64,000 bases of DNA from Chlorokybus atmophyticus (Eukaryota > Plantae > Mesostigma and Chlorokybus algae): assembly GCA_009103225.1 (NCBI GenBank), contig RHPI01002699.1:162578-226577 (forward strand), in the 5' to 3' direction. Shown piece by piece: positions 1-64,000 of the stretch. Under the pieces are notes generated by a model, which saw only the letters and a program-made list of their open reading frames with translations, had not been told where the DNA came from and searched no databases. Both the position numbers and the translations under genes were made by a program. Positions within the stretch are counted from its first letter, which is position 1. Each line of letters begins with the position of its first letter.

Positions 1-46
1 AGCCGAAGAGGCTAACCCGCATCACAAGAAGGCCAAGGCCGATTTT

Positions 47-1084: not shown

Positions 1085-1143
1085 TAATTGCAATGGTGAG
1101 TTATTAATAAGAATCATCCTCGGAATTAGAAGGGGAGGTACTG

Positions 1144-6147: not shown

Positions 6148-6311
6148 TTGGTATCGGAGCTCGTGGAACATGCATGCTCTCTACTTCTGCTTGGCCTCAA
6201 GCCGCCCATGGTCCCGCACAGTAAGTGTGAAGTTAGTCCCTGGGTGGTGGCTATGCATACTTACAAACTCTTGTACTTGCAGAGCTTGACAGATCACGAG
6301 ATACAATAGGC

Positions 6312-8604
6312 ATGGACGCCTGCCAGGACAAACCCTACCATGATCGGTGCACTACCTTGGATGAGAAAGACATTGCCAACATTTACAAGTGCATTCAACG
6401 CAGTCGGTTGATTGATGGCAATGACGCAGCAGCGGTACACAACATGGTACTGATGCATTCCAAAGGCATTGTGCTACATTATAAAGAGGAAGAACAAACA
6501 GCGCGCAAGCGCACGCCTTTTATGTTGGTCCTGCAGACAGCGTTTCAGCGCGATATGCTATCCACATTTGGTACAAACATAGCCTTGATTGATGCGACTG
6601 GCGGCACCAATAGTTGCGGCTATCGGCTGTACACTCTGTTGGTTAAAGACGACTTTGGCAACGGTCAGTACCGCCCTTATAGCTGCTGGACACCTGACAA
6701 TTTGATAAGACTGTCATGCATTAACTGCAAAACCGATGCTCGCACACGCGCAGGTGTGCCAGTTGCATGCATGGTTACCAATGGCGAAGACCATGAGGTC
6801 ATACTCACCTTTCTTCAGAAGATCAAGAAAAGGACAGGCATGTTGCCAGCAAACATGCTGCTGGACAAGTCTCAAGCTGAGCTAAAGGCGTTGCGGGTAC
6901 TCGGCATAGATCCGCTCCTCTGCTACTTCCACATGCTACAGGATGTTGAGCGGATCCTGCGCAAAAGAGACAACAAAGTGCCGTTACATCTACGACCAAA
7001 TATTATGCAAGTAATAAAGCGCTTGAAACAAAGCAAAGACGAGCTGGTGTTTGAGAGCCACTATACTGATTTCAAGCAGACATTTGCACACCTGCCATTG
7101 CTGATAGCCTACATTCACAATGAATGGTACAAGTGCAGAGGTATGCAGCGTGTGCGCACCACTGTTCAAAGCCAAAGAAAGTAGCTAACTGCTTGTTGCA
7201 TGCAGTGCAATGGGCAGACTTTGGGAGGCAGTTTCAACACGAGCGCATTGAAACAAACAACCACCTTGAACGGCTTTTCCATTCCTTGAATTATGGCTAA
7301 AAGGCAAAGTGAATCGCAGAATCTCAGCTTGTTCAGACTATCCTTGATGACATTGTTCCATTGTAATACCGTCAACGGCAACGCAAACTGGATGGCCGCA
7401 TTGGCAACCGAGAAGAGCAGCAGCAAGCTAAGCGTAGGCATGACGTTGCGTACCTGAAGACTAGCAACGCCATCACGCTTGAAGACCATGTGCTTGGAGT
7501 GTGCAGTTGCCCAAGCATGAGTAATAAGGATGGCTTATACGCTGATGGTAGCTGAGCTGCTATGCGAGTGCCCGGCTTCCAATGTGCATGGGCATCTTTC
7601 GAAGCAGCTCTCGCGGCCTGCCCGTTGACGATGAGCATGAGAAGGTATGTCAAGGACTGCATCCTCCTGCCCATCTATGGTACTTACTTTGCTGTTGTCA
7701 TGTAGGTGGCGGCAACGCGCTTGCTTGAGGAGGACCTTGTGCAGCAGCATGCTCACCTGCAAGGCCTGCTTGTAGTCAACAATCTGCTCGGGAGCGACAA
7801 GCAATATGAGTGCAATGTTGTTGCCAAGTTCTGCACATGCATCGACTGTGACACCAACTCAGTATGCTGCCATCTGATGGCGGCGATGACGAACATGCAG
7901 ATGAATGATGTTAGGGAAGGTGCTGGCTCTACATGCAACAGCTCTGCATTGACCGTTCACGTACATACTGATTCACCATGACAACACCTGACTTTCCGTA
8001 CACAGGGTTGGAAGCTTGCGGTGAGATGGCATCAGAGCGTGATGGTGTTGAGGCCACCACAAATACTGAGCCCCTCACCAACGTTGACATCCATGAAGAT
8101 TGTGGACGGCACACTTTGGAAAAGCCCCTCACCAACGAGCCAGTTGCTGGTAATCTGACCCATAGCATGAGTAGTAGATGCCATGCATGCTTGAAGCAAC
8201 ACGAGTACTGCATAATATGCACGCTTCAACTCTGTATTGATATGCAGAGAGCGACGATGTTGCAAACACTATAAGACGTACCTTGCTAGCTATCAAGCGG
8301 CGTGTCAAGTACATAACCGGGATAACAGCACTTGACTTGCAAGACGAGCTTGCTGCCATTGCGGCTCGCATTCAAGCAAGTGTGCCTACGTTTGAAAGCA
8401 CGCAAAGACAGCATTAGAAGCATTGGACCCGCAAGAACAAGGGTAGAGTGGTGCCCCTCCTGTATGCGGTGCGTGCAAGCACACAACGAGCAAGCCAGAC
8501 AAGCACTACGGACTCTAGACCAGCACGCAAGCCACCAGCAGTGCACATACCGCGGTTTGCTAAGTTTCAAGGTTCGGGAAGACCAGCTTTTATCGGCGCG
8601 GTAA
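6312..8604 (+). mobile_element. Mutator-like (MULE) transposase with SWIM finger, spliced, frameshifted
   Basis: IDATGGTN..GY.L, LLDKSQAE, LCYFHMLQ (CxxH), and after an intron ETNNHLE (third acidic residue). SWIM motif CTCIDCDTNSVCCH at ~7830-7875. Introns at 6664-6753 and from 7141. Frameshift near 7295. No TIRs located. Confidence 0.88.
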
Positions 8605-9413
8605 CGTTGGTACCTTGAACAAAGGGCCAAGCAGCACCCAAGCGCCATCCAAGGCAAAAACCAGCAGACCCTACCGCTGGTTTGCATGAAAGCCAGCCCT
8701 CTGCCTCCATGCCAACAGACACAGAGATCGACAATAGTCCCCCATCACATGCGCGGCCATGCTCAGAGCACACAGCATGATTGGCGAACACCTCCGCCAA
8801 AGCTCAACCCATACACGTACGCACACCGCCACCAGCACAGTCCCCGGCATTGAAAATTGCGATAAAATGCCGTGAGAGCTTAGAGGAACAAGCCGTTAAG
8901 TTGATGCAGTAGGAAATGGTGATGATGAATGGACCAACTCATAATGTAAACTGGCATAATTATCTACATACAACCACAACTCAACTATGTTGAGCCAGTG
9001 AGCTACAATCAAACTAACAAAGCCATCGTACTGGTGCTGCCTGGTCTGGTCGTCTAGGCCACTGGCAGCAGGTGCGGCGTTGCTGTCGCTGTAGCGCTGG
9101 TCATGGTCCGCCCTCGCCACTCCACCTGCTATCCGCCCACGCCACGCCGCCTCACCACCGCCGTCGCCGCCGCCGCTGCCAGCCATGTGGGCAACGCGTA
9201 GCGACCAAGGCATTTTGATCCACCGTAGGCGGTGAATCACATCGCGGCGGACGGTGAACTACTACTGCTTTAGTTCACTGCCGACGGTAGTTCACTGTAC
9301 TAATCGCGTCCTCACGGTGGAGGACGCGCTGAGAGGATGCGGGAGTTTGAGCATTGGTGCTGAAGCCTATCAGTGCTGTAGCGAACTGCGCCGCAACCCT
9401 GGTGCGACCCATC

Positions 9414-10680
9414 ATGTTTGTCCCGGCGGCGGCAGGGCCGGCGAGGTCTTCTTCGGAACCGTTAGGCCTAAAGGCCAGCATCATGCTAATCATCTTGGGT
9501 TGGGTGGGTATGTTGGTATGGTTGGTGTGGCTGATTTGGGGCAGGGAAGACACCTACGGTATGACTAGCCGCTGCGTCGTCACCCTGGACAACACCACCA
9601 CCACCACCGCCACCGTCGTCGCCAGCCTCGCCACCGTCACCGCCGCCTTCGGACCGCCGCTGGCCCAGGGCGGCGTCCGTGGCGTGCTGTACCAGCTCAC
9701 GCCAGCAGACGGCTGTAGCCCTGTCGCTCATGCCGACAAGGACGGCGATGCCTGGATCGCCCTCGTTGAGAAGGGCAACTGCGGCTTCCACGACAAGGTG
9801 TTCAATGCACAGCTCGCCGGCGCTGCCGCCGCCGTCGTCTACGACAATGAGGACGCCGAATCGCTTGTGCTCAGTAAGGGTTTCGCTCTAGTAACTGATG
9901 TTGCTTGCATGGTTGTCGTTGCTTTGGTTGTGTGTATGGCATGTCCTTTTTGTGCACATACAGTCTCTGCAACGTTTGCTGAGTTTGACTGAGGCCACAC
10001 GTGCCAGTCTTCCACATCAAAAAACATAGATGTGATTATGCAGGCATGTGGTTGCAATTCATAAGACAATGCAGGTTCTTGCTGCATGACTTATGCGATG
10101 ATGTTGTGTTATTGCACGCATGCATTGTTAACATGGTTGTGTGGACACGCGTCATGGCTTTCTAATTGGCACACAAAAATTTGCTTAAACCAATGCGCTT
10201 TTTGCCCTTGCAGTGACCGCAAAAGATGCGAGTGATATCCACATGTCATCCGTGTTCACAAGCAAGCAGGACGGGCAGCTTCTGCATTTTATCACTGCGA
10301 GCCAACAACAAGGAGAGCGTGTGATGGCGGTGCTCGAGCCCGACATAGATTACGTGGTCCCGGATCGCATCCTAACTTGGATACTGACTCCCATATTTGT
10401 TTTTGGCTTCATTTTTTTCACAGCAATGGGCGCTGTGGGAATTCGTGAGGACCGTCTTCGTCGCATTCCAGTGAACACGCCAGCGGACGAGAAGGATGTG
10501 GAGGATGTTGTTGTTGTCAACTGCGAAGCAGCTGCTCCCCCTCTTGCATCGGCTGTGACAAGTGATGGCCATAGCAAGCTTGAACAGGGACAGAGGGCAA
10601 TGAAGTTGGATACAGCGCCCTTGCTGCAAGATTGTGAGTGCCAACAAAAGGGCGACACCCCACCATTGTACCGTCCTTAG
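9414..10680 (+). CDS. PA-domain single-pass membrane protein (RMR/RNF13-like luminal domain, no RING), copy A; exons 9414-9873, 10214-10680
   Basis: AAFGP..G.L..LTPADGCSP..WIALVEKGNCGFHDKVFNAQLAGAAAAVVYDNE is a typical protease-associated domain. N-terminal hydrophobic segment plus a TM segment in exon 2. GTAAGG...TGCAG intron restores A|TG in frame. Confidence 0.85.
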
Positions 10681-21668: not shown

Positions 21669-22871
21669 TCACTTTCTGTTGATTTCACGACCTTGCAGCA
21701 AGGGAGCTGTCTCCAGTTTGGTCATTGCCCCTTCTCCGTCGTCAAGCTTGCTGAGGCCATCACTCGCACCAACTGATGCAAGCGGGGGGGCAACTTTGCA
21801 GTTGACAACAACAACGACATCCTCCGCGTCCTTCTCATCCGATGGCGTGACAAGCTTAGGAGGAAGACAGAAGAGCAAGCCTATTGCTATGCATGCAATG
21901 CAGAAAAGAGACCATATCAGAGCCCCTATCACATGCACTATGCGATTGGCAACAACGTAATATACGTCGGGCTTGAGCAGCGCTGTCACACGCTCTCTTT
22001 GTTGGTTTCCAGCGACGATTAAGTGCAGAAGCTGCCCGTCCGCCTTGCTCATAAAAACGGTTGACATGCGGATACCGCTCGCATTCTTGGCGGTCACTGT
22101 TTGCGCAACAAGGTTTGGTTAGTGCAGCTTTGTGTGTGCCAACTTTAATCGACCATGACCCGTGTCTACACAGCCGTGTTGATGCACGCATGCACAACAG
22201 ACCCACAACTCATGTTTTTCAATCGCCACCACACATGCTTGGAAGATCACAATTTGCTTGTTTGTATTATCAATATTTGGCACATATGACCTTGGACAAA
22301 CTTAGCAACGTCATATACGCTATATATGTACCAAAGCCACAACCATGCAAGCAACATCAGTAACGACACCCACAACAACCCATGGCGCAGCTCACGCTAG
22401 AGTGAAACCCTTACTGAGCATAGGCGATTGGGCATCCTCATTGTCATAGATGATGGCGGCGGCAGCGCCGGCGAGCTGGGCGTTGAGGACCTTGTCATGG
22501 AAGCCGCAATTGCCCTTGGCAATAAGGGCAATCCAGGCGGCGCCGTCCTTGTCTGCATGAGCGGCTGGGCTGCAGCCGTCTGCTGGCGTGAGCTGAAACA
22601 AGACGCCTTGCACGCCGCCTGGAGGCAGCAACGGGCCGAAGGCGGCGGTGACGGTGGCGAGGGAGGCGACGACGGTGGTGGTGTTGTCCAGGGTGACGAC
22701 GCAGTGACTCGTCATACCATAAGTGCCCCAATCCCGACGCACGCACACCCACAAACCCACCAAACAGAACCAACCCAGGAAGAACATCAAGCGACCGCAG
22801 CATACCGGTTGCCACGGCGACGGCGACGGTGTCGGCGGCGGCGATGTCGCCGCCGACACCTTGCCCGCCAT
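21669..22871 (-). CDS. PA-domain single-pass membrane protein, copy B; exons 22871-22415, 22096-21669
   Basis: Same PA motifs (WIALIAKGNCGFHDKVLNAQLAGAAAAIIYDNE), same intron position (A|TG) and same GACCCATCATG start context as copy A. ORF intact. Confidence 0.85.
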
Positions 22872-23162
22872 GATGGGTCTGTTTGAGCAAGCAGTGCCAA
22901 GCCTGGCCGAGGCCAGAGCGACGTACCGGAGTATCCGTACCGGAATAGTTATGATCCTCACATCTCTACTCCAAGACTTACCTACCGGAGCACATTGTAG
23001 CGCCGCATCAAGAACAGAGGACGGATTTGCCCAATATCGAGGGAGCGTGTAGTCACGCGTTGCCGCGCTGACGCTGTCGGCAACGATGGTGGCGTTATGG
23101 ACGGTTGGATACCGCGTTATTGCATGCACTAACGTGATGGCGTGCTACGTGCGTTCTTTGGT

Positions 23163-41472: not shown

Positions 41473-44400
41473 TCAAGTAACCAGCAGCTTGCCGAGGCTA
41501 CTGATATCCAGAATCTTGATATCGAGGTTCTCGTCCAGCTTGACAATGCCATCAGAAGCATCAATACCAATCAGTTTGCCGGTGTGGCCTCGCAGATCAC
41601 CCGCAAGCACCTTAACCTTGTCGTGCTTCTTCGGCGGCACGAGCTCAAGGTCACCGACACTCACTGTTATCTCCTCTGTTTGCTCCTTCTCCCCGAGCGC
41701 TACTGTACAGCTGCCATTGTCTTGGACCGCACGCACCACGCCAGTTTGTCGCTCATGCGATGGCCTGTCCACAATGACAAGGATGCCCGGCATGGGCCGC
41801 AAGTCTGCAGCACCAACCGCTCCACCCATTCCTGAATTGGACCAACACATTGAGTTTCAGCACAGGCCATGTAATGACAGCAACTCACACACACGCGCAC
41901 GTGCGCACACCATCTACGCACACGTTGCAAGTGTGAGCCACATACCAGGTGACATGATGTCGAGTGCGCCTGCACCCGGCGTCGAGGGAGTGGCAGGGTT
42001 GTAACCGACGGTTGTTGCGCTGGTAAAGCCTGGTGTAGACGGCGTAGCCGGGTTGTAATTCGCCGTGCCAGGATTGTAACCACCTGGCGTTGAAGGCATG
42101 CCATAACCGCCGGCTTGCCCGGGATACGGCGATCGCGCTTCTGCCATGCCAGGTGTGGGGGCATTCCAAGGTGTTTGCGCATCATAAGCCCGAGCCCCAG
42201 GTGTTCCTACACAGAAAGAAAAGCACATAAGCACGTTGTCATACAACTCAAGTACACACTGCTTGAGTAAACTCATTACAACGTGAAAGGGACTGAACTG
42301 GCAACAGCCATACCTGGATTGTGGTCCATGCCAGGGGTGCCTACTGGGGCGTGTTCACTCGGCGTGAAGGGCGGGTACATGTTGTAAGGAGTCTCAGCAG
42401 CCTTGTAGCCTGCAATGGGCCCGCCGGGGCTGTTGCCCCAACCGCCGGGCATCTCATAATCCGAGTCACGAACGGGTGTCGTTGGTCTGTAAGGATGATA
42501 CGGCTGATCTATTGTGTGTGTCGGCGTCTCGCGCACCGGAGTCTTCATGTACGACGGCGTGTCGCGAGCGGGAGTGCGGCTGCCCATAGGCGTGTAGTCC
42601 CGAGCCGGCGTCTGCGGGTACTCTCCAAACCTGCCATGCGACGAGCGGCCCCAACCCTGCTGTTGTTGTTGATGTTGCGGCTTCTCATCTCGGGCGGGTG
42701 CTACAGGCAATTGGTCACGCCTCACGCTAACCGTGCGCATCTGCGATTCCAACTCGAGACGCACGGTGGAATCAGTGGCATCCACAACGCGGCCGGTGTA
42801 ACCCTTCCACGGCCCGGACTTGATCTTGAGGGATTTTCCGATGATAGGGTCTGTGTGATGGCCACGCCCCATGCCATTGCCTTGAAAGCCGCCTCCGCGG
42901 CCAAACCCACCTTGCCTTCCCGGCGTGCCGTGTTGTGTAGGGGAAGGCATCGATCCCGCCATGCCCCCCATCATGCGCGACGGCGTCATAAAGCGTGCCG
43001 GCGACTGAGGCACAAACATGCCGTTGCCGTGCGCAGGAAGGGCCGCGTTGGTGGTCTTTTGCCCGCCCAAAGCTCGGCACAACTTGGCACGCACGCACAC
43101 GATGCCTTGGTTCTCTATCACCTCCCTTGATTGCAGAAACAAAAAACCTTTCTGGATGTGCCGCACTGTGCCCTGCACAACAATACAACATCAACTTATC
43201 ATGCTTGTTGATACAAGTAATGACTGAAGCAATCGACCAACAGATAAGCGCTGCATAAAGCTTGCATCCATGTCTGATACACCAGAAGGGGTAAGAGTGA
43301 GCATGAGGCCTTACCGTCTTATTCTTCATAGCGCCATCAACAATCCGTACGACATCGTCTACAGCAATGGTGTTCATGTAAGCGTCCTGCGTGGTGTACT
43401 TCTTTGAGTACAGCTTGCGCTGAATCTCAGGCAGCCTCACTGTTCGGATATCGGGCCGATCAGGTGTTCCATTATTCGTGAGCACCTGCAGAATTGTTAT
43501 GTCACATACCAAGGCTAAGAGAACAAACAAAACAACCACGGGACACAATTTTGCCAAATACACACTTACAAAAGTCCCATTGTGTGCACACACACCTGGC
43601 AGGCTTCTTTTTCAACTTTGATAATCATTCCGAAGGATGAGTTATCCAGAAGGACAAGGTCATGAAGTTGGAAATTGCCAAAGGTATCGAAGCCGCCAGT
43701 CACTTCTGTACACTCGACCACATCCCGGGCAAACACCTCAATATTCTTCATGGATACATCTGACAGGATGACCAGCACGTTGTTGTGCACGTGCACGACC
43801 ATCCCCGTCTCACTTTCATGACGGCCAGCCAGCACCTTCACGTGGTCCCCGGTGTCAAAGTGCTTGCGCAGCTGCTTGGCTGACAATGAAACCGCTTCCT
43901 GTCACGCACACGCGCAGATCAACATTGAGGTACAAGCAACTTACATGCTTTCCAACTGTTGCAGAGCTGGATTACGCACATGTACACACACCTTGAGGCT
44001 GCCGTCTTTCGCAGAGATGGTGACTTCATCACCATCAACTTGCTCCACTTTGGCTTTGAGCGATATGAGGTCGCCCTCAATGACAACCACTGTGTCGCCC
44101 TTGACAAAAGAAACTTTGGACTGCTGGCCAGTGGGAGGCAGCGCCTTGGACATACCTGTTTTGCCAAGTAAGCAAGCATCGCAACAATTGATGCTACCAA
44201 GGATCATATCAAGTGTCACGTACCCGCAAGATCCATCCCTCCGCCCTCACCGTCGGGGCCTTGGAACTTCTGCAGCTCTTCGTAAGTGGGACTGATGTCT
44301 TTGGTATTCTGAACACATGCACGTTGTTCACAAGTATAAGCGCTGGGCGAGCAGTAAAGCAAGCACTGCAGATGGGGTGAAATACAAAGCATGACAACAA

Positions 44401-46537
44401 CTTACACAACTCTTGAGGGACACGATCTTAATGACGTATCCCTTGTTGAAGCGCTGATTGGCAAAGATTTCATGGTAGTCACCCGTAATGTTATCACGGC
44501 GGCGATCAAGTGGTAGACCGAGGTCTCTGCCATTAGCGAAAAAATAAAGGATCAAGGTCTGCAGAATACAAGTGAAATGCAAGCTTTTCACTTGTATTCA
44601 CAACCAAAGTGCTTGTGAAATAACTTACTTTGCATCCTGTGCGTTGAATAGACGCTGAGGAGGCCGAGGCCTTTTGCGGTTTGCATAATCCTTATCATCC
44701 TGAGAAAGTTGCCAGTTTCAGACACTTGTGACTCCATGTCCATTGATTGCGGCTGAGTTCAACTACATACGCAAACACTTACGGCCTTGGCTGCAATTGC
44801 AGCAAAATCCAAGCGTGGCACAAGCTTCACCGTGCAGCGTTGACGCACATAGTCCACATCAAGAACCTGAAACGCGCCAAAGGTGTCAAAGGTGTAAGCT
44901 CCTGTTCTCCCAAACAGTCAAGAGACTTGAAATTGGACACAATAATCTGTGCACACCTGTCCAAGATCACCCTTGTATGTCCCGTTGCGAATGCGAATCC
45001 AAGAGCCTTCCTGCAGGTTCGCGTCTTTCGCATTCACGTTGAGGACGTCCACCATCTCACGAATGGGAACAAGCTTCGGTGGTTTATAGTAAAACATGCG
45101 CAGACCAGTGGTTGCCTGCCAAGCATACCAACTGAGGATCAAAGCCGATGTAAAGTAAAGCTTGGCTCTATAATGACTTACACAACATAGTCACGTGTGA
45201 ACACATAGTTGCGCCTGTGTAGGCATACAAAATGCTGGCGCATGTCCTCACCGATCGCACATGGGACTCTGCGTATGCCTCAACGTAAACGTATCCCTTG
45301 AGGTGGTCCAGTGCAATTGCGGACTTGATGAGGAGCGGCTCCCCAGCCGCAGCTTTGTCAAGAAATTTCTGCATGAGGCAGGCTGCACCCTCTCTTTCAT
45401 GACCAGTCTGTACCGGGACAAGTTTAGTAGGCCCATAACGCAGCATTGCACAACAATCTCACGCACTGCTGCACGGACTGCTGCACGCATGCACATGCAC
45501 ATACACACCACCTGGGCCTGATATCACCTTGCAGCCGACCATCCACAACTTGGGGTCCTTGACGGAAGGAAACAGACCTTGCTGCTCTACTTCAGAGCGC
45601 TCAGCATCGTCCATCTCCTGATACCTTGCTGACCCGTACCTCTCCTCAATAAACTTCTGGATCTCCTCATCATTGTCCTCCTCTCTGTTGCGCATGTCCA
45701 TGCGTTGATGAACACGAGAGACGGGCTCTGCCAGGCTTCCGGGCAAGTCTGCATCGCGATCATCGATGAGATCCTCCGCGTCCTCCTCCTCTTCTTCCTC
45801 ATCGCTTTCTGCAACTGCGGCAGTATCATCAATGAAGGGATTGGCGCGGGCTCGCTTGCGCCTTGTTGTGCCATCCTCCTCATCATCTTCGTCTTCATCG
45901 TCATCTTCCTCTGCGGCCTCATCAAGAAACTCTGACCTGCAGTACGCAAGGCAACCAACTTTCAGGAAAAGTTTGCAAACAACCTTCAAGGCTTGCACTG
46001 TAGGCATGGGAAAACAGCCAGATTGGCAGTCATATCTTGCAACTGAACTACGCCCAACATCCTGCAAGTATGATACTAGCAACGAAAATTTGCAATGTTC
46101 AAGCACACAAGCCAGCTGGCTGGCGTGCTTTGTATAAGCTATGCATACAGTAAGCTGTTGTAGTTACTATGCTTGACATTGTGCATGCATATTGCGGTCG
46201 GCTAGTAATATTCACAATGCGGTTATTGAGAGAATAGAGCTGCCAACTTCAAGATGGTCTACAAGTTGAAGTAAAGCGATTGAAGCAAAGTGCAGCAGAG
46301 AGCTAAAAGACCAGCAAGACTGAGTTACCGTTTGCGGGATTTCTGCGCTTTAGCTGGTTGCTTGCGTTTTGAGGCTTTAGGCGGCGCTTTCGACGCCTTC
46401 GACTTGCTCTTCTTCTTATCATCCTCATCGCTCGCCTCATCCTCGTCGCTGAACTCCTCGTCCTCCTCGTCCTCCTCCTCCTGCTCCGACTCCTCGTCCT
46501 CGTCGTCGTCAAACCGGCCCTTGCCCTTGCGCGCCAT
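41473..46537 (-). CDS. SPT5: Transcription elongation factor SPT5 (acidic N-terminus, NGN, KOW domains, CTR)
   Basis: Acidic N-terminus; PSVKDPKLWMV.CK; LKGYVYVEAY; GSWIRIRNGTYKGDLG; FVKGDTVVVIEGDL; FDTGDHVKVLAGRHE; IKSGPWKGYTGRV; TP-rich CTR (RTPARD, YNPATPSTPG); C-terminal KOW KHDKVKVLAG..GKLIGID. Confidence 0.97.
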
Positions 46538-53306: not shown

Positions 53307-54251
53307 GTCCTTGCTCCCTGCTAGCAGCACGCCTCCGTCTATGTGGCCCTGTTAGCCTTCTCCTGCTGCTCTTCCTCTTCCTCTTCCGCCTCCTCCATGT
53401 TTACTGCTCCATGCCCAGCGAAGCGCCACCAGCATCAATGCTAGCAGAATTGTGTATAGTTTTGACTTCTACAAGTATAGCCTGCGCCGATTGCCCTGCC
53501 ATTGCGTCAACCATATCGCCGATCACGTCGCTGGCAAGCCCGCCGCCACCGCCGGCGTGGCTGCTGCATGCAAGCTGCATGCCACTTAAGGAAAAATTCG
53601 GAGTTATTTCCCGCATTGCGAGAACGCCGATAATGTGCCGTCCGCAAAATGTGAGAAACATTCTACGAACCAATATGTTGCGTTGCTGGACTGATCATCG
53701 TACACATCGTAGTATTTGCGGCTACGGGGCTTTTGCCATAATGCCAGTACGGTAGGGCTAGAGTCGTAAGTTCACTGGAGACGATTGCCAAGCGCGTCTC
53801 GCATGCGGTCACGGTTTGCCACCACCGGCGGTGGCAGACTGGTGTCCAATTCATTGCACCGGACAAGCGGGTTTCAGCGCTGGTTGTCCGATACACAGGG
53901 ACTACCCGGTAGTCGCGCCCGGCTGTGGAGTTTCGTGCCGGATGACAGGCGGCTTAACGCGGTGTTGGCCGTTTTGGTTGAGAAGGCCGCTCTTTTTGGC
54001 AGTGTACGGGAGCATTGCTCTCACATGCAACGGACCATTCCGCTTCGTTGCACAGCTGGCATGAATTGACCTGCGCTACGTCAATGACCCTGGCTCTGCA
54101 GGGTTTGGCGGAACTGCCGGTCGTTGTACCGGTATCTGTTGCACACAACCGGCTGGGGCACTCAACAGCGATGGGCCATTCACACTTCTCTCACACATCT
54201 GTAGCGATTCTGATAGGTCTTGGGTCACGTACAGGATACCAGTACAGTGTA

Positions 54252-54679
54252 CAGTCCAACCTCAATAAGTGCATATTCGATTAGTGCATATCCGCGTTTA
54301 GTGCATAAATTTGGCCATCACCGACGTCTTCAGGGGGAAGACCTGTGCGTTAAGAGCATTTGCATTTATCGATAAGTGCATACCTTGAGATGCTCAACCT
54401 TTGGTGTGTCTATGCACTCATCGAGGTGAATTGCGCTTAAGTTACAGAATTATTGTTATGACTACAGTGTATCATAGTTGCGGTCGTACACGTTACAACA
54501 TAACTCAGGATTAGGCTTACTTAATAAGTGCATAGGTTATGCATTTATGCCAAGCCTAAGTGCATAATATATGCACGTAAAGCGGGTGCATAACTTATGC
54601 ACTTAACGAGGATGCATAAACGCAATAAGTGCATACATAAGCCCGTTCCCGATGGTATGCACTTATCGAGGTTAGACTG
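54252..54679. mobile_element. Tc1/mariner-pogo type MITE (428 bp)
   Basis: 24-bp TIRs CAGTCCAACCTCAATAAGTGCATA / TATGCACTTATCGAGGTTAGACTG (2 mismatches), TA on both sides, many internal GTGCATA/TATGCAC subrepeats. Confidence 0.88.
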
Positions 54680-55683
54680 TAGTAGACTAGTCTTGCTCTG
54701 TACCATAGTCTGCCCCCTTTCAGAGCATAATGTTTATCCTTCGCTATCTTATGCTTTTGGCGGAGTCGTTCTCTGGCGTTTAAGAGCATAATGTGCTCTT
54801 GACACGGACTTTCGCAAGATTTGCGTAAATGCTTACCATTGCACAATCATGAGCTTGAGCATGTGTGTTTCATCGTCTATGCGTTAATAATCTTGCATGT
54901 GTATGCACACATGCTTGGTTTGCTGATGGTTGCATACATTAAGATGCTTGCGATATCACGGGCAATGTGCATAACCACATGTACACAACTGAGGCAAGGA
55001 ACATAATAGAAGCAGCACCCACATCTAGTACACAAGTCAACAACGCATAATCTACATCAATCATCAACCATTGAAGGGTCCTCGACAATCGCACAAATGC
55101 TGTGAGCGATGTCGAAGCATCATTACCCGAAGCATGAAAGAACTCGGGCAAATGAGTCCGATGTGAGGAGCCGAACAACTGATGACGAGTCACAACATCA
55201 CGCATCTGCCGCAATGCCATCTGCAAATGCTCTGACACAAAGCACTCACTACTGGTAATGAAGGCTTCAACACCACTCGACTGCTGAAGACATCCAAATG
55301 TCGTCACTGTCGGTGGTGCGAACTCATCATCATTTAGCATATCATCAAGTATAGTATAAGTAATAAGCAACAGCAATTGCACATATGTCATGCTTAGTGC
55401 CCACGCATACAAGCCTTCATCGGGCATGCCTACATCAAAACCATCGCCCTGCCTACCAGCGCGCGCGCGTCACTGACCAGCTAGGTCAAAACTCCAGAGT
55501 AGCTCACGACCATAGCCTACATAGGCACCGCGCATGGCTGTTCAATTGTGAGTTCAGTAATAAGTTGTGTGTTATATCGAGAAGCGATTGCTGTAGAAAT
55601 AGCCTCGATATGATCGTTAGCTTATATTTTGAACAGTCATGATTTGACTTGTATAAGTAGTCACAGTGTTCACTGGATCAGCT

Positions 55684-56037
55684 GGTGACACTGTGAGTGA
55701 GAAAGCTAAGAGCTTGTGAAACGACTTGAACTGCGAACACGCCATCCCGGTTACCAAGAACCCCCTCATTGTGTGAGAGCGTGTGCATGCTCGTGTGTGC
55801 ATCATACTCGTCATTGCTGTGAGCTTGGTGTGCCTGGTTGCAGTGTGTTGGCATCGGTTGGGGCATAATATCCACGTGTTGCTTGCTCATTCAAAAAAGG
55901 GAAAAAAAATTACTTATTAAAATCAAATTATATATTTAAAAAAAAAGACTTAACTGTGTAACACATTTTTCGCTCATGCAAAGAACTGTGTAAACAGCAC
56001 TACCTATAGTAGTGGCTTGTTGACTCACAGTGTCACC
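55684..56037. mobile_element. Possible small MITE
   Basis: Perfect 15-bp inverted termini GGTGACACTGTGAGT / ACTCACAGTGTCACC enclosing an AT-rich core; only a 2-bp CT direct repeat outside. Confidence 0.4.
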
Positions 56038-56744
56038 CTCTTTGCTCAAGTGAGTGCGTTGCATTCTACATCAGATAGTCCAGTCTGTATCTGGGGACAC
56101 ATCCATGTGCATTCGTTGTTACTGTCATTACATAGTGCGCACACAAGCAGACTAGTGCGGTGAGTGGTAGCGGCATCGAGACAGGTAGTAGAGCACAAAC
56201 ACTCTACCCTGCATACACTTTCACCTGTGGACTAGCTGTATGAGCAGGCCCAATAGACGAGGGTGACCTCAGCAGCTGGAGCCCAGCCTCCAACCTCACC
56301 TACGAGCGGACCAGCGACGGGAGCAACGATCGTAGCAACAGAGGCTCGCGCCCTGTTTCCGACTTCACTCTGTTCCTGTCCACTCCTCGGCATCGAGCTT
56401 TCCCACTCTCGTTCGACAGTGACGACTACGAGACGAAGTCTTCAAGCTCAACCACATCCCTGCGCTTTTTCGGACGTGCTGGCACTACCTCACTGGACGA
56501 ATTCATCATTAAGTTCCATTTCAAGCTGCGACAGCAGGCTCTGCAGAACAAAGACTGGTCAGATGAGATTTTTTTTCACATTGCTGCTCAGTATCTGGAC
56601 CATGAAGCACATGATGTCTGGAAGTCTGTTGCTCAACTGCATCGAATTGATAGCTATGGCGAGCTCGCTAGTACCATAGCATCTGCATCACTACACATTC
56701 CAGCAACCGTCTTTTCACCTGCCCCTCCCGCTGCAGTCACCGGG

Positions 56745-57815
56745 TTGTTTATAGCGGCAGCCATTGACAGAGCAGAGGAGGAGGAAACTGAGTCGGTGAT
56801 TGTCAACCTGACCCTTGCAGAGATTGAGATCAAGACGGCTGCGCGACGGGCCCGGATCCTGGATTGTTCTGCTGGCATCCCTGAGGAACAACGAGCTGCA
56901 GCCGTCGAGGTGGGCACACCCCTACCTTTGGCAACACCTGGCTCTCGTGCGGGAGGCAGTGCTTTCACCCTCGGGTCAGTCGCACTGCGCGCACCAGCCA
57001 TCACTGTAGGTGCTGCCATCTCTGACTCTCCACTCAAGGACCTATACGCTGCACTTCGTTGCACCTTCCCACCACAGACCACTAGTATAGTGGAGGAGTT
57101 GAGGCGGTCCCGACGCAAACCCAACAAGGACCCCCTACGCCTATACTTCAGACTGCAAGGGCTGTTGAAGGACACTGACCACAAGATTGTCAGTGACGAG
57201 GCTGCTGCAGTGGTATATGTCAATAAGTTGGATGCCACCCTGAGCGAGTCGACGCGGTTGACCCTGAGCTACAGCAGGCCCCTTGGCTACATGCTCAAGG
57301 AAGCTTGTGAGACTGCACAAGCCATCCATAAGCGCTTGGTGTATGAGAAGGCAGTGCTGGACACCAACCGCAGCGCCTCACGGCCTGTAGCCAGCACAAC
57401 TGCTGAGCCTCCTCACCGCGAATGTGGTCGGGACGCTCCACCTGCTCGCGACAAAGGGAAACAGTCAGCGCATACGGCTTTGCCTGCCCCTGTGCTGTGT
57501 CATCGCTGTAGACGGCATGAGCACTGCCAAAAGGAGTGCACCGAAGAGTACTCAACTCTGGTCTGGTGCAACTATTGTCACAAGACAGGCCATTTGGAGT
57601 CAGTCTGCTGGCTCAAGTTCCCTGAGTTGAGACCCGCCAACAGCTACAACGGCAACAGCTCTGGTAGCTACAACAGCAACAACACTGGAGGCCACAACGG
57701 CAACAACTCTGATGGCTACAACAGCACCCACATTGGAGGCCATAACAACACCAACAACCACGCCAACGCTCGCAAGGAAGAGCAAGGCTACAGGGGGAAG
57801 AGTCGCCCTCTTTAG
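56745..57815 (+). pseudogene. Gag (capsid-like region and two zinc knuckles) of the second gypsy element
   Basis: CHRCRRHEHCQKEC and CNYCHKTGHLESVC; an upstream frameshifted gag part lies at ~56420-56660. Confidence 0.8.
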
Positions 57816-58449
57816 CGCAAGGGACTGGAAGGACGACCGCGCGCTGCTGCTGTTGCCGCCAAAGCTACAGTTAACCCGCCAGCTGATGACCATATGGCTG
57901 CCCTCATGGTGCGTATGGCACGCTTGGAGGAAGACAAGGAGCAGGACAACCGCGCCTGCTACTCTGCCCGATGGGCACTAACGGCTCCGAAACGCACGAG
58001 AGACACCAGCACTCCGTCACGTATTCAACCATCCCGACGGGTTCGAAGGGAAGCCGCAACATCGTCAGCAGCTACCTTCTCTGAAGCCACCAGTGGTGCT
58101 GCACCAGCAGCAACAGCTACACCGGCTACGACGTCGACTCCGTCAATGTCAGCAGCAACTGCTTCAATTTCACCAGAGGTTGGTATACCAGTGAGCACCG
58201 CAACGCCAACACTGGTGAGCACGCTGGCGACAGCCACTGCTGTCACCGACCCTGCAAGAGTAGGTCGTACCGGTCCCGCCCCAACTGCAGGACCACCTGT
58301 GTCATCAAGTGTTGAAACCACACTCGCGCCATTGAGCGGCACTCTCGCCCACACCGGCAGTGCCATCGTCGAGCCTGCTGCCACTGCAGCGGGGCGCGCA
58401 GCTACATTACCGGCCCTCGACGTCACTCAAGCTGTCCCGCAAGGTTTTT

Positions 58450-58930
58450 TATTGGGACACCCTCTCAAAATCAACGCAGCGCGTCATGGCTCCCGTGCTC
58501 ACCGCGTCCGCGCCAAGTGGATCAACCTGGCTACAGTTGAGGATCTCTTTGCTGCTAAATAATTGCACAGCAGCTGTCCACGCATTCTCACCGTCGACGC
58601 TATCATGGACCCCGGGCGCACAGCATAATCAGTCACCCGACACAATCACCAGCACTTCTACCAGTGCAACCAGCCTGGTCAACCACGTCGTGCGCCCCAC
58701 TCTGATGTCTGACTCAGCATCATACGCCTTCCATAATTACGGCGAAGGCATGGTGTTAGATTCAAACACAGGCCAACTAGAGGAACCCAACGCACGTGAG
58801 CGCGCCATCGGATTCTCTTCAGGCAGTATCACAGGCTCCACGCTGACCGACAGTCAGCAATGTCAGCTGTTGGGACGCGCCATGGACCAGATCAGCATGG
58901 TATGGTTATTAGAAATATGCTTTGCTCTCC
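58450..58930 (+). pseudogene. C-terminal half of a C5-cytosine DNA methyltransferase domain (motifs VIII, TRD, IX, X) embedded in pol
   Basis: INAARHGSRAHRVRAKWINL (58470-58529, motif VIII-like), EEPNARERAIGF (58780-58815, motif IX-like), QLLGRAMD..SMVWL (58864-, motif X-like). Motifs I-VI not found. Confidence 0.72.
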
Positions 58931-59259
58931 AAGACCGCCATGTGTCCTTCCAGGAGCTCAAAAACCTGGCGGGGGGGTGGGCCGATCACGTGCAAGAGAC
59001 CAAAGCAGCACACACCGCCCTCGAAATCGCCCATATGGAGGAGCAGGCAGCAGTCACTATGGAGGACATCCCAATAGTCGCCAATGCTACCTTTTGGTCC
59101 CATGCCATTGGTCCATTGGCTACAGGCCAGACGCGAGAACAACATGAGGCTCTCCTCAACAAGTGGAGGAGTCAGTTCAGCTTCAGCGTGAAGGACGTTT
59201 GCTTAGTTTACCAGATGGACATCGAGTTGGTGTTTCAACGACAGTATTGACTCTCCAAG

Positions 59260-60960
59260 TTGGAAGAAGACTTGGTGGTGCAGAGGTGCAAGGCTCTCCT
59301 ATATGCAGGCCTGACTGAGGAGTTCACATCGTACTTTACGGCCGCGACCGTCATGCCTCTAAAGAAGGATTCAGCAGGCAACTGGACAGACCTGCGTATG
59401 TGCGGCGACTATTGCCCCCTCAACAACAAGACCAACCAAGACAGGTATTCAATGCCTATTGCAGAGGGTATCTTTGATGATGTAGGAGACTGTGGTGTCT
59501 TCAGCATCCTGGACATGCGACAAGGGTACAACCAGATCGCCATCAAGGAGGAGGACAAGCAAAAGACCTCTTTTTAGGGCAACCGGCAGCTGTACCAGTG
59601 GAAGGTCATGCCCTTCGGACTGAAGAATGCTCCTGCCAAGTTGCAGCGCGTCATGGACAATGCCTTGAAGGGGCTTGACTTCGCGCGATGCTATATTGAC
59701 GACATTCTCATCAACAGCCGCAGCAACGAAGAGCACCTACAGCACATTGAGGAAGTGCTGAAGACTCAAAGGGGTAGGGATGACGGTGCACCCCGACAAG
59801 TGCACCTTCTTCACTCGCAAGGTACCCTACCTAGGACACATGATTGTGCCCCACGGTGTGTACGTACAGCCGGCAAATGTGGAGGCCTTGAAGGCTATCC
59901 GTGCTCCAACAAACCTTACGCGCCTGCGCGCCTTTCTGGGTCTTGCCAACTACTATCTCCGGTTCGTGAAAGACTTCGCAAAGATCGCGCGACCCCTCAA
60001 TGAGCTTTTGAAGAAGGAAGTGGAGTTTGAGTGGAAGGAGCCACAACAGCAGGCGTTTGAGGAGCTAAAGGGCAGGCTCACCACCGCTCCCATTCTGCAA
60101 CGCCCTGACTACAACAAGCCCTTCATCCTCCACACCGACTGGAGCAAGCTTGGGATGGGGGCTGTGCTGGTACAGCACGATGAGAACAAGAAGGAGCGGG
60201 TGGTGTCGTACGTCAGCCGGAGCAACAACAGCGTGTTGAGGATATTCTTGTATCCGGTCAGCTTGCCCTGTGGATAAGAATAGCCGCGAGAAGATTCAGG
60301 CGCGAGAAGGTTTCAGTCGAGAAAGGTCCAGGCGAGGACTTCAGTCGAGAAGGCTCCAAGCGCGGAGTCGAGTCCGGAGTCTGGAGACTTCCAGGCGCTG
60401 TAGAAGAAACGTTGTAGCTCGGTGGTTACGTCATTGTATGGCGCGTGTTATAGCTTGTTGAAAAGCTCTTGAAAGTAGCTACGTGTTGCAACTTAGAGCG
60501 CAAGAATTGGTTGAGTGTAGAAGTCGTGGTGGCTTCTAGAGTAGACAGGTGCAGAACTGGCGGGTATAAAAGCCCGCGGTTTGACTTTGTTGTAATCCTT
60601 AGAAAGCCTTTTGGATCAGCCTTGTGTGTATGCTCTGGTAGAGTGTGTACTTGTGCTTGCACCTACTCCATGCATGGTCAGTAGTGTCCGAATCTCAACA
60701 CAGCGCTCAGGCCAACCACAGCAGCTACGAGGGGGAGTGCCTCGCTGCAGTGTGGGCTATCTCCTTCTTCAGACCTTTCCTCTTTGGTTGGCAATTTCAG
60801 CTGATCATCGATTATCAGCCACTCAAGTGGTTGATGATTAATTCATATTTGACAAGGAAACTTGCTCGCTGAGCCCTGTTGTTGCAGCAGTATGACTTCG
60901 AGATCGACCACCGTGCCGGCCTCATCAACCAGAGCGCGGATGGCCTCAGTCGCAACCCTT
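59260..60960 (+). pseudogene. Reverse transcriptase and RNase H of the second gypsy element (RNase H split by a solo LTR)
   Basis: RMCGDY..LN, LDMRQGYNQI, MPFGLKNAP, YIDDILI, LRAFLGLANYY, LHTDWSKLGMGAVL; SRSNNS|AQANHSSYEGECLAAVWAI rejoins across the insertion. Confidence 0.93.
60234..60700 (+). mobile_element. Solo LTR (467 bp) of an unrelated retrotransposon
   Basis: TGTTGAG...CTCAACA termini, perfect 5-bp TSD CAGCG (60229-60233, 60701-60705), TATA-like GGGTATAAAAG near 60563. Removing it restores the RNase H frame. Confidence 0.93.
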
Positions 60961-61389
60961 ACCGCAGTACCAGCGATGCAACCGGAGCTCGGCACCAGCT
61001 CGGCCCTGCAGCAGCAGCTCCCACCGTGGTGGCCATGTTTGCTGTTGCCGCGTTATGATCAGGGCGCCAGATTATCACCACCGCCACCTCAACGGCAGAG
61101 GAGGTTTCTGCCCTTGAGTCTACCGGCCCCACAGTGACCACACCCCTAGGAGACGCCCACGCGGTCGATATTGAAGTTGACGACACCGAGCTGGCACCCA
61201 CGGACACCAGGCCTCACATATGGCTGGACCAGTCATCACTCTCCTTCCTTTAAAGTGGCCAGCTTCCCTCCAGCATGAGTGCACGAGAGAAATATCGTGT
61301 CAGTCAATGCACCCGCCACTATTGGTGAGCGGATGACAAGGTGTACCGCCGCGTCCATGACGAAGACAAGGAGGTGCCGACACCAGCCA

Positions 61390-62450
61390 CACGCGAGGGC
61401 ATCATTGCTGCCCTCCACACTGAGCTTGGACACTTCGGTGTCAAGCGTACCGTCAGCGTAGTAAGGGCGCAGTATTGGTAGTATGGGCTTTCCAAACAGG
61501 TGAAGGGGTTCGTCAGTCGTTGCCAATAGTGTGACATGGTACGCGCCAGCCTCAACACACGCAGCGCCACCTTGCACCCTCTCCGCATCTCCGGTCTATC
61601 GCTGGGGACTCGACATATTGGGGGACTTGGCACCCTCGGCACGTGGCAACCGCTACATCCTAGTCATGATCGAGCACTTCTCCAAATGGGTGGAGCTGGT
61701 GCCATTACCCGACAAGAGCAGCAGGGGGGTGTCTCAAGCCTTCCTCTCCCATGTCCTCAGCCGGTTTGGCAGCTGCGCTGAGGTCATCACCGATCAGGGC
61801 ACTGAGTTCAGAGGGGAGTTCAACACCCTGCTGGACAGATGCTACATCGATCATCGCAGCACTTCGCGTGACCACCCTTAAGCCGACGGTCTTACCGAGC
61901 GGACAGTACAGACCATCAAGAAGGCACTCCGCAAGTACGTGCTGGAGTATGCGAAGAACACCTAGGACGACCACCTTCTGTGGGTGGCTCTTGGATATCG
62001 ATTGTTAAAGCAGGCGGCTCTGCGCAAGTACAGCTTATACTACCTGCTGTTCGAGCGTCCGCTATTGCTTCCCTTTCGTGCACAGCAGGAAGTAGACCGT
62101 GTGGTGAGCAACCTCGACAATCCCGACTGGATGCACTACGACATTACCACACACGCCACGCAATTTAAGCACACCGTTCTGGTGGCCTTCAACAACCTGC
62201 GCATCGCACAGCACCTTGACACCCTGCGCTACGAGCGCGTGCGGAGCGGCTTCTACAAAGAGCGCCAACGACGGTTTCAAGCAGGGGACTTCGCCTACCG
62301 CATGGCAGCCACCAAGGACACGCTCGACACCTCCGTGGGCCGCACCGTCTACAAGGTACTCAACGTGTACCACACAGGAGTGCTGGACCTCCTCGGTAAA
62401 AACGGCGAGAGGAAAAGACAACATGTAGAACTGCGCGCCATGTTACCTTC
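61390..62450 (+). pseudogene. Integrase of the second gypsy element
   Basis: Zinc finger LHTELGHFG...C..C; core RWGLDILG, IEHFSKW, VITDQGTEF, ADGLTER; C-terminal RFQAGDF..., NCAPC.LP. In-frame stops present. Confidence 0.92.
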
Positions 62451-62506
62451 CTTACATAGCGGGCTTTGCGCGCATCCAGCACTCTCGCCCCGCCCGCAGC
62501 ACATGC

Positions 62507-63178
62507 TGTGAACGCTACGGCAGCGCCGGCGACGACGCACTCATAATGCTTTGCGATGGCTGCAACAAGGGCCTGCATTGCTACTGTCACAGCGCACTCG
62601 ACCACAAAGGACTTGGTGCTTTTATGGTCGATTTGTGGTGATTTAATGTACCTTCCCGGTACGTTCCCCCCACTTAACAACGCTGACGTCCTCGGCAGCT
62701 GGCGCCCATCAGCTGAGGAATCATCCCAGGGGTCTGATTTAGGGTCGGTCACCGGCCCCACCACCCAAGGACCGGCCAATTTAGGCCCATACCGGTCAAC
62801 GCGCGCACATCGCGCCGCTGCCGGCCCCACAGGTTGCGTCGCCGCGATAGGCAGGTCGCGCCCTACCGCGCCGACTGAACTGGTCAGTGCGGCTGACTGC
62901 TATTAGGCAAGTCGCGACCCATCGATGATGGCACTTATAAAGTGACCATTTACGATGTTATTGGATCGAGATTCAACGACCGCGGAATTCGTGTGCAAGG
63001 CAAGAATCGAACTCAAGTCTCAAGCTCCGATGATCAATGTCACAGCCCACTCGACCACAAAAGACTTGGTGCTTTTATGGTCGATTTGTGGTAATTTTAT
63101 GTACCATCCCGTTACAGCTACTGTCTGGAGCCCCCATTGGACGCAATACCCATGGAGGAGTACTGGTGCGACGATTGC
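62507..63178 (+). pseudogene. PHD finger at the integrase C-terminus, split by TRIM insertion
   Basis: After removing 62585-63121 the frame reads CERYGSAGDDALIMLCDGCNKGLHCYCLEPPLDAIPMEEYWCDDC (C4HC3; second Cys mutated to Tyr). Confidence 0.9.
62585..63116 (-). mobile_element. TRIM (532 bp) with 79-bp LTRs
   Basis: LTRs 62585-62663 and 63038-63116 (about 7 differences), perfect 5-bp TSD GCTAC (62580-62584, 63117-63121). On the minus strand: PBS-like TGATCATCGGAGC (63036-63024) and PPT AAGTGGGGGGAA (62675-62664). Confidence 0.93.
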
Positions 63179-63299
63179 CGCACCAACGGTCCTTTTCACC
63201 TGCGTTAACAACTGAGCTCTAGAGCTGGAACCTTCCCACAAACTAATGGGGGGTGGCTTGTTGACTGTGTGCCCTACAGCACAGCCTGTACACTAAAGA

Positions 63300-64000
63300 G
63301 GTCACCGCCTCCACATGTCCGTGTGATTCAGCAACAGCGGAGCAGCTCCATCAAGCACTCCTCGCCATACGAGCGGAATGATCTTCTACTTCTGCTACAT
63401 GTTATAACATTTTGCAGCGACAGGGCTAGCAAGCATGTCTTTCCCTGCAGCGGCTCGAGACAGTGTGACCCTCGACTCTCCTCGACCCGACACATACAAC
63501 AGCAATTGTGTACATACCGTTTGCGGCAGGGTCAACAGTGTCATTTTCCGGGGAAGGCAATGCCCGAACACTCATCAAGATGTCTTCATTACTCTGGCTT
63601 GCTTCCGTAGGCAGGTGATCATCCACCTCAACGAACTCATCAACAGATAGCATATCAGCGCGGGGAATGGGCAAATGCTGCATCATTTCGCCCATGTCGC
63701 GTATTACGGCGTGAATGACGCGGTTGCAGTCGGCAGGACTAGTGGCGTACCACTCTGGTGGGGTGATGCTAGTCTTCCTCCAACAATTGGAGATGGTGGT
63801 GGCATTCAACTCATCTCATGCCTCGTAATTCGACACAATGGCATCGCGCATTTGGACCTTTACTTTACTCAAGTCGGGGGTGGGATCGACATCATATTGT
63901 TAAAAAAGGTGCTGCTCCAGCTTTCTTTTGTACCTGCCCATACAAAGCAACAACAGCAACATCAGCATTACAATTTTTACAAATGTGGGGGGCCAGAGGC
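63300..64000 (-). mobile_element. Pogo/Tigger (DDE_1, CENP-B-like) transposase C-terminal fragment, degenerate, runs off the window
   Basis: YKRKLEQHL...ELNATTISNCWRKTSI...LSVDEFVEVDDHLPTEASQSNEDIL matches the pogo/Tigger post-catalytic pattern; in-frame stops upstream. Confidence 0.75.

Follow-up and report, generated by a model that had tools for sequence, protein, structure and literature searches.

A degraded Ty3/gypsy element of Chlorokybus atmophyticus with a DNMT3-like segment before reverse transcriptase, a PHD finger after integrase and predicted split terminal repeats

Introduction

The closest described relative of the element reported here is KnitGypsy-Dnmt3 of the streptophyte alga Klebsormidium nitens (PMC5890265), which combines a Gypsy pol region, an unpermuted, intronless Dnmt3 domain in the open reading frame (ORF) of reverse transcriptase (RT) and RNase H, and DIRS-like repeats. 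The pol and Dnmt3 traits are shared, and the repeats may be of a similar kind, in a Ty3/gypsy copy at 55386-63492 of a 64,000-nt stretch of DNA from another streptophyte alga, Chlorokybus atmophyticus (assembly GCA_009103225.1, contig RHPI01002699.1, positions 162,578 to 226,577 of the forward strand; called the window below, and all coordinates are its own). The two differ in host and in the state of the copy, which is dead in Chlorokybus, and the PHD finger of the Chlorokybus element has no counterpart in the accessible text of PMC5890265 (0 occurrences of the term), which also gives no mechanism of priming or integration. The initial annotation of the window, made from the letters alone, had pointed to a likeness to the Klebsormidium retrotransposon methyltransferases, and this likeness holds.

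Parts of the architecture occur elsewhere. DIRS elements of the PAT/Ngaro/TOC type have the layout A1-internal-B1-A2-B2 (available parts of PMC4157794 and PMC8969392) and use a tyrosine recombinase, whereas a DDE integrase, TG...CA ends and 4-bp duplications are found here; assignment to the tyrosine-recombinase elements was rejected, since the rve core is present and all ORFs of at least 200 aa in six elements are on the plus strand and fall within gag-pol. In Tf1/sushi elements and the plant Tcn1 chromoviruses the primer site is complementary to the element's own 5' repeat and not to a tRNA, and these elements have ordinary long terminal repeats (LTRs) and chromodomains (available parts of PMC6317226), in contrast to the split repeats, PHD finger and DNA methyltransferase (DNMT) of the present family. 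A PHD finger in a green-algal Ty3 polyprotein is known from Gypsy-7a_cRei of Chlamydomonas, for which the accessible part of PMC9940879 names no DNMT and gives an LTR structure; REM1, another Chlamydomonas candidate for a PHD-bearing Gypsy, is known by a title cited in PMC6673714. The EpiLTRs of Cymbomonas and Euglena (bioRxiv 10.64898/2026.05.21.726589, in the portion available) are LTR elements with a cytosine methyltransferase and a chromatin reader, but their DNMT is sister to DNMT4 and is accompanied by a DAM domain and a chromodomain, and that paper sets them apart from streptophyte Gypsy-DNMT3 elements; EpiLTR identity was rejected, the combination of DAM domain, chromodomain and DNMT4-related methyltransferase not being found here, where the DNMT is of the DNMT3 class. 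For Gypsy-DNMT3, later papers cite streptophytes only, as far as their accessible text goes (PMC12344493 and the same preprint), and the literature searched, which lay outside Repbase and most subscription journals, contained nothing on Chlorokybus DNMT3 retrotransposons, on Marchantia Mp8g17980 or on split LTRs in gypsy elements, and its listings gave no publication about this clade other than those cited here. An element of this kind is already published as KnitGypsy-Dnmt3; what is new is a host range wider than that in print, together with end features that suggest an unusual integration route.

Results

Methyltransferase segment and internal deletion

Judged from its sequence, the segment 58449-58932 represents a DNMT3-like C5-methyltransferase of which the C-terminal half remains, and the full domain, as read from relatives, is of the unpermuted, intronless Dnmt3 class. 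All sequence blocks quoted in the initial annotation are present in the window: INAARHGSRAHRVRAKWINL and ILTVDAIMDPGR..FYQCNQPGQP (motif VIII and target-recognition region) are encoded in the gag frame at 58449-58694, a stretch interrupted by two stops, and PTLM, EEPNARERAIGF and QLLGRAMD (motifs IX and X) lie at 58696-58932 in the RT frame, as had been claimed for the last two blocks; this frame is common to the stop-to-stop frames 58336-59250, 59251-59577 and 59578-60003. A phmmer search with 58699-59247 gave 60 relatives at E<=0.001, and tblastn matches of relatives extend over both DNMT halves. With a profile of 46 long relatives the two halves scored E 1.2e-15 and 1.9e-19 (45.9 and 58.4 bits), nothing else in six frames of the window reached E<1, and the best of 200 shuffles gave 4.4 bits; this test is not wholly independent, because it was the window piece that led to these relatives. 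Another profile, made from 20 relatives, placed DNMT3A first in PDB (E 1e-20) and HhaI at 2e-8, with motifs VIII, IX and X aligned, and the predicted fold of relative P0042 (pLDDT 75) is closest to DNMT3B/3A (E 3e-12). The order motif VIII, target-recognition region, IX and X, which had been read by eye, is thus borne out by the profile scores and the DNMT3A alignment.

Comparison with PF00145, proposed earlier as a check, gave a divided answer: none of four window DNMT pieces matched this or another Pfam methylase model, but 14 of the 60 relatives matched PF00145 at E<=0.01, 12 of them above the curated cut-off. A PDB sequence search with the window piece gave no match at E<=10, a word-based search of 322-2000-aa proteins with the DNMT piece yielded no related protein among 969 candidates, and none of 27 pattern matches in IMG/VR proved to be a relative; in an atlas search one set carried PF00145 on 12% of its members and is noted as a lead only. 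A host DNMT3 pseudogene adjoining a Ty3 element was considered and rejected.

Sister copies in Chlorokybus are known from contig pieces only, in runs X1 (1464 contigs) and X2 (760 contigs) of two studies, with 30 letters readable per loose contig end; runs X3 and X5 contributed little information of this kind. Contigs of X1 and X2 depart from the window sequence after 58438/58445 and others rejoin it before 58449/58453, which places the break at 58446-58448, and the rejoining letters translate to a helix resembling the helix ahead of motif VIII in the family profile. The window has 310 aa between its second zinc knuckle and motif VIII, versus 676-960 aa in four relatives, and by this comparison the deletion would have removed about 370-650 aa. 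The loss of protease and motifs I-VI near 58440 and the dead state of the copy, both proposed from the window alone, hold: these contigs continue into methyltransferase sequence and confirm the deletion, and the copy also carries stops and frameshifts. Motifs I, IV and VI, expected upstream, are carried by intact relatives, but the Chlorokybus sisters are known only into the helix before motif VIII. At the gag stop, both DNMT stops and the frameshift the sister contigs carry other letters, and the family is therefore taken to have a single gag-pol ORF.

The coding region comprises the following features:

56244-57815, plus strand: gag frame with two zinc-knuckle-like motifs at 57498-57608; the closing TAG reads otherwise in sister contigs
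57816-58445, plus strand: Ala/Thr/Pro-rich linker in the gag frame
58446-58448, plus strand: junction left by the internal deletion, in which protease and DNMT motifs I-VI were lost, placed by loose contig ends in X1 and X2 and by spacing in relatives
58449-58932, plus strand: C-terminal half of the DNMT3-like C5-methyltransferase (motif VIII, target-recognition region, IX, X), with two stops and a frameshift at 58694
59251-59845, plus strand: RT (PF00078, E 6.5e-14), broken by stops and a frameshift near 59760
60030-60990, plus strand: RNase H (PF17919, E 2.9e-22; PF17917, E 1.4e-11), split by a solo LTR
60234-60700, unstranded: nested 467-bp solo LTR of another family (TG...CA, 5-bp CAGCG duplication), skipped by sister contigs
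61218-62410, plus strand: broken integrase with zinc domain, D,D(35)E core and C-terminal part (PF00665, E 5e-10)
62495-63205, plus strand: C4HC3 PHD finger in two halves (62495-62584 and 63117-63205), ORF stop at 63206-63208
62585-63116, unstranded: nested 532-bp terminal-repeat retrotransposon in miniature (TRIM) with 79-bp terminal repeats (92% alike) and a 5-bp GCTAC duplication, splitting the PHD finger and skipped by sister contigs

The pol order RT, RNase H and DDE integrase is that of the KnitGypsy-Dnmt3 type, and a DNMT lies within the ORF of RT and RNase H, as seen from motifs IX-X in the RT frame and from the one-ORF relative P0096. The gag frame had no Pfam match and a weak tblastn match to the gag of relative P0011 (E 0.002). 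No chromodomain was matched after the integrase in Pfam scans of the window and relatives, a PHD finger standing there instead. The C4HC3 finger reported at this place is real but is split by the TRIM, its second Cys reads Tyr in the window copy, and its first half scores E 0.0012 against PF00628, below the cut-off. The TRIM itself has high contig depth in X1 and X2, and a 63116-to-62666 joint in run X3 hints at tandem forms of it.

Relatives and their domain orders

Relatives were sorted into order A, with the DNMT after RNase H or directly before integrase, and order B, with the DNMT after protease or before RT, as in the window. Among 71 proteins of at least 500 aa, 57 showed order A and 9 order B (5 unclear), and among the best 80 of 272 metagenome loci 66 showed order B or probably B and 11 order A (3 unclear). 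P0096 is an intact protein with protease, DNMT, RT, RNase H, integrase and PHD finger in the domain order of the window. The motif G[WF][PE]CQ is kept in all 8 scored proteins with the DNMT before RT, the catalytic Cys and the EN motif in nearly all intact relatives, and a PHD finger in 40 of 50 long relatives. Named hosts of order A are Haematococcus, Chromochloris and Cymbomonas, in which the DNMT lies between RNase H and integrase; the side of order B includes Marchantia Mp8g17980, a piece covering gag, protease and DNMT, as well as short fragments of Spirogloea and Calypogeia that were assigned there by tree position or best identity. No protein named for K. nitens is among the relatives listed. 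The initial annotation had called the family possibly new for its lineage; its range is far wider than one lineage.

Trees were built quickly, with rows anchored on one reference, SH-aLRT (Shimodaira-Hasegawa-like approximate likelihood ratio test) as the only support, one distant outgroup that leaves the root unsure, and DNMT-less relatives left out. Orders A and B form the two sides of one branch both in the RT-RNase H-integrase tree (support 100; 45 of 77 rows after removal of near-copies) and in the DNMT tree (support 91; 59 of 145 rows), and the window groups with order B.

Some order A elements (P0018, P0054) have a G-patch between DNMT and integrase, and extra long ORFs lie behind pol in some others of this order (L002, 7959-10250; L003, 4790-7462; L007, 5577-6869). 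Mp8g17980 (P0097) is labelled DNA cytosine methyltransferase in UniRef, yet is a piece of the retrotransposon clade, and such entries may inflate counts of host DNMTs.

Terminal segments, junction and self-priming site

The core proposed earlier (56420-63260) lies inside a wider element, 55386-63492, and the split, non-LTR ends and the self-priming duplex had been missed. The features of the ends are as follows:

55386-63492, plus strand: whole element copy with TG...CA ends and a flanking 4-bp CATA duplication, of the form A-internal-B without long terminal repeats
55386-56022, plus strand: 5' terminal segment A, the predicted promoter-R-U5 part of a split LTR; begins TGTCATG as does A1 of relatives, its end being set by the predicted self-priming site
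55652-55657, plus strand: TATA-like box, 32 nt upstream of the primer arm and at equal distance in relatives
55684-55698, plus strand: predicted transcript 5' end and self-primer, 15 nt, perfect complement of 56023-56037
56023-56037, plus strand: predicted self-priming primer-binding site, complement of 55684-55698
63245-63256, plus strand: polypurine-tract-like G run; a G run also precedes B1 in relatives
63254-63492, plus strand: 3' terminal segment B, ending CGACA, its start placed from the G run

The first TG stands at 55386 and the last CA at 63492, with one CATA copy on each side. Contig depth drops outside these borders, X1 and X2 contigs spanning the element and almost nothing beyond it, and sister contigs connect 63492 to 55386 through the 2 nt GC (CA-GC-TG), as seen in one contig of X1 and two of X2. 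The TG...CA ends, the 4-bp duplication (4-6 bp expected) and the purine tract are traits of a canonical LTR element, but a repeat search of the element found no long repeats, and hence not the two direct terminal LTRs of such an element. The insertion lies in a short, imperfect tandem repeat, with CAACAGCAATTG occurring on both flanks (55366-55385 and 63493-63515).

In Chlorokybus, candidate split repeats are seen as A and B once each in the window and as the B-GC-A junction in its sisters, and the full form was found in related insertions. Six distinct B-type insertions with long flanks (L013, L019, L032/35, L038, L046 and L050/52/54) read A1-internal-purine tract-B1-NN-A2-B2, and six other distinct B-type loci end after B1, like the window. 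A begins TGTCATG and B ends GACA in both Chlorokybus and the AT-rich B-type relatives, NN being GC, AC, GT or AT; all 16 distinct 5' ends begin at TGTCATG, and 4 of 5 complete insertions have 4-bp duplications. The CGACAGCTGTC junction (GACA-NN-TGTC) also follows the ORF in 7 of 11 A-type loci, for which the full split form was not shown. The end of A2 lies 0-3 nt inside the primer site, and the purine-tract boundary marks the start of B2, limits from which it follows that the A2|B2 seam would join two primer-defined cDNA ends; this seam shows a variation of a few nt, and in L038 it has been deleted. A CG beside the attachment site at the B end (CGACA) is kept in L003, L004, L008, L011, L012, L013, L018, L063 and the window (63488-63492), and thus across lineages, and the mirror position on the A side varies; the DNMT of the element might act on this CG, which might also underlie a cutting bias.

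The arms 55684-55698 and 56023-56037 form a perfect 15-nt duplex, a length reached in 0 of 200 shuffles, the first arm standing 32 nt after the TATA-like box, and the RNA fold around it has a z of -3.8. A 15-nt duplex of unrelated sequence occurs at the same TATA distance in the L013 group, where the second arm starts where A1 ends, and a third unrelated duplex sequence occurs in L011. Of 23 regions, 12 have a perfect duplex of at least 13 nt that none of 200 shuffles equalled, and a separate count gave 15/15 duplexes in 10 of 20 regions. No tRNA-type primer site was evident, the window contains no tRNA, and Rfam gave no match in 54000-64000. A primer site complementary to the 5' repeat, the mark of self-priming in the available text of PMC6317226, is thus present as a sequence signature.

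Other features of the window

At 1-3600 there is another Ty3 element, unrelated and lacking a DNMT, with zinc knuckle, RT, RNase H and integrase; it served as outgroup. A MULE (Mutator-like element)-like transposase piece, two PA-domain exons in opposite orientation and an SPT5 gene occupy 6237-7181, 9351-9989, 22395-23144 and 41700-46200, the SPT5 exon at 42519-43175 (minus strand) being 100% identical to the Chlorokybus gene model Chlat1 Chrsp234S03564. Short inverted repeats based on ATAAGTGCATA cluster at 54250-54681; the outer arms, 26 nt long, are separated by 380 nt, and the cluster resembles a miniature inverted-repeat transposable element.

Discussion

The family encodes a gag-pol polyprotein in which a DNMT3-like domain precedes RT and a PHD finger follows integrase, and we consider it fairly probable that it is self-primed and that its integrase cuts an internal palindrome. 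This reading brings together the domain content, the deletion, the TG...CA ends, the 4-bp duplication, the CA-GC-TG junction, the 15-nt duplex and the split repeats of the relatives. Transcription would start in A1 about 32 nt after the TATA-like box, and the RNA 5' end would pair with the site just behind A and prime reverse transcription as in Tf1/sushi. The usual copying of LTR type would then give a cDNA repeat B-NN-A, bounded by purine tract and primer site, so that the true LTR would be B-NN-A. Joining of the two cDNA ends would produce the A2|B2 seam, and the DDE integrase would cut GACA-NN-TGTC, drop 2 nt and insert the product with a 4-bp duplication as A-internal-B-NN-A-B. The product A-internal-B, seen in the window copy, may come from a one-repeat intermediate, from B1/B2 recombination or from assembly collapse. 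The PHD finger would likely tether the integrase to H3 tails; the PHD sequences resemble the class that binds unmethylated H3K4. The DNMT, which shares its polyprotein with RT, would most likely methylate new cDNA in cis, as proposed in the available parts of PMC5890265. The initial annotation had suggested that the writer and reader could self-methylate new copies or steer integration. For HIV-1, integrase can cut the palindromic junction of 2-LTR circles, and such circles can feed integration (PMC1905944 and PMC4372172, in the portions available).

Several observations weigh against this reading. The form A-B-A-internal-B, expected from a symmetric two-repeat circle, occurs at none of the 16 distinct 5' ends, so the joining or cutting steps need an unexplained bias. 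The complete split form was not seen in Chlorokybus, where the three-contig junction could stem from copies in tandem or from assembly collapse; a matching duplication is missing in L013, the junction in 4 of the 11 order A loci (two end early), and a perfect duplex of at least 13 nt in 11 of the 23 regions. With regard to the DNMT, the catalytic residues are deleted in the window copy and motifs I, IV and VI of its sisters lie outside the readable 30-letter ends, the Klebsormidium Dnmt3 domain did not methylate DNA in yeast, a result called inconclusive in the accessible text of PMC5890265, and the 37 listed C-to-T differences, a small and biased sample, show no CG bias (6 CG, 8 CHG and 23 CHH versus a background of 21/22/57%).

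The same element with the same split ends might do without a circle if the integrase trimmed linear cDNA at internal palindromes and B2 was added either through RT jumping end to end between templates or through ligation of the B piece that had been cut off. That route, which we regard as unlikely, explains why only A-internal-B-NN-A-B and A-internal-B occur and never the form absent from the 16 ends, and the short form is indeed common (6 distinct loci and the window versus 6 full ones); yet it has no precedent in the literature examined, and the variable and, in L038, deleted seam is what end joining would give. Doubts about the activity of the DNMT bear on another explanation, in which the domain is not a writer of cDNA methylation and instead serves to bind DNA or RNA, with the conserved CG by the attachment site as one conceivable target, or as a decoy. 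The inactivity in yeast and the lack of CG-biased decay would fit, as would variants of motifs I and IV such as PFGGLC and GWEC, which are common among relatives, but nearly all intact relatives have retained the catalytic Cys and EN motif, and the SymbioDIRS-Dnmt3 domains do methylate CG (PMC5890265, accessible part); we think it quite improbable. It is very improbable, and largely refuted, that the copy is a standard LTR element whose 5' LTR was lost or that a Ty3 and a piece of host DNMT3 came together by chance: such an origin would account for a copy without long repeats and for a window piece that misses PF00145, but not for an exact TG start with matching duplication, terminal motifs identical in distant relatives, multicopy sisters across the DNMT, and protease-DNMT or DNMT-RT order in 66 of the best 80 of 272 loci.

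Beyond the self-primed element with internal cleavage, a wider history can be put forward tentatively, with doubt slightly exceeding belief: an old green-lineage Ty3 clade captured one DNMT3 before the chlorophyte/streptophyte split, later moved the domain within pol and survived into land plants, using an undescribed LTR-element route of self-priming, cDNA-end joining and obligate integrase cleavage of an internal CA-NN-TG palindrome. A single old capture can only be suggested, because the root is unsure and DNMT-less relatives were not sampled. The two orders on the two sides of one branch in both trees argue for long conservation and hence for a real role in the element's cycle.

The same module is found across Chlorokybus, Spirogloea, two liverworts and three chlorophytes, whereas in the printed record searched Gypsy-borne DNMT3 is linked with Klebsormidium and, more generally, with streptophytes. 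With the ends described here there is a testable account of the odd DIRS-like repeats that a 2018 figure legend mentions, and the intact relatives are ready substrates for asking what role a transposon-borne methyltransferase has. In this family a DDE integrase may naturally act on a palindromic junction inside its substrate, a reaction that for HIV-1 is known only as a side route; if so, the retroviral 'dead-end' circle junction would here be the normal substrate of integration.

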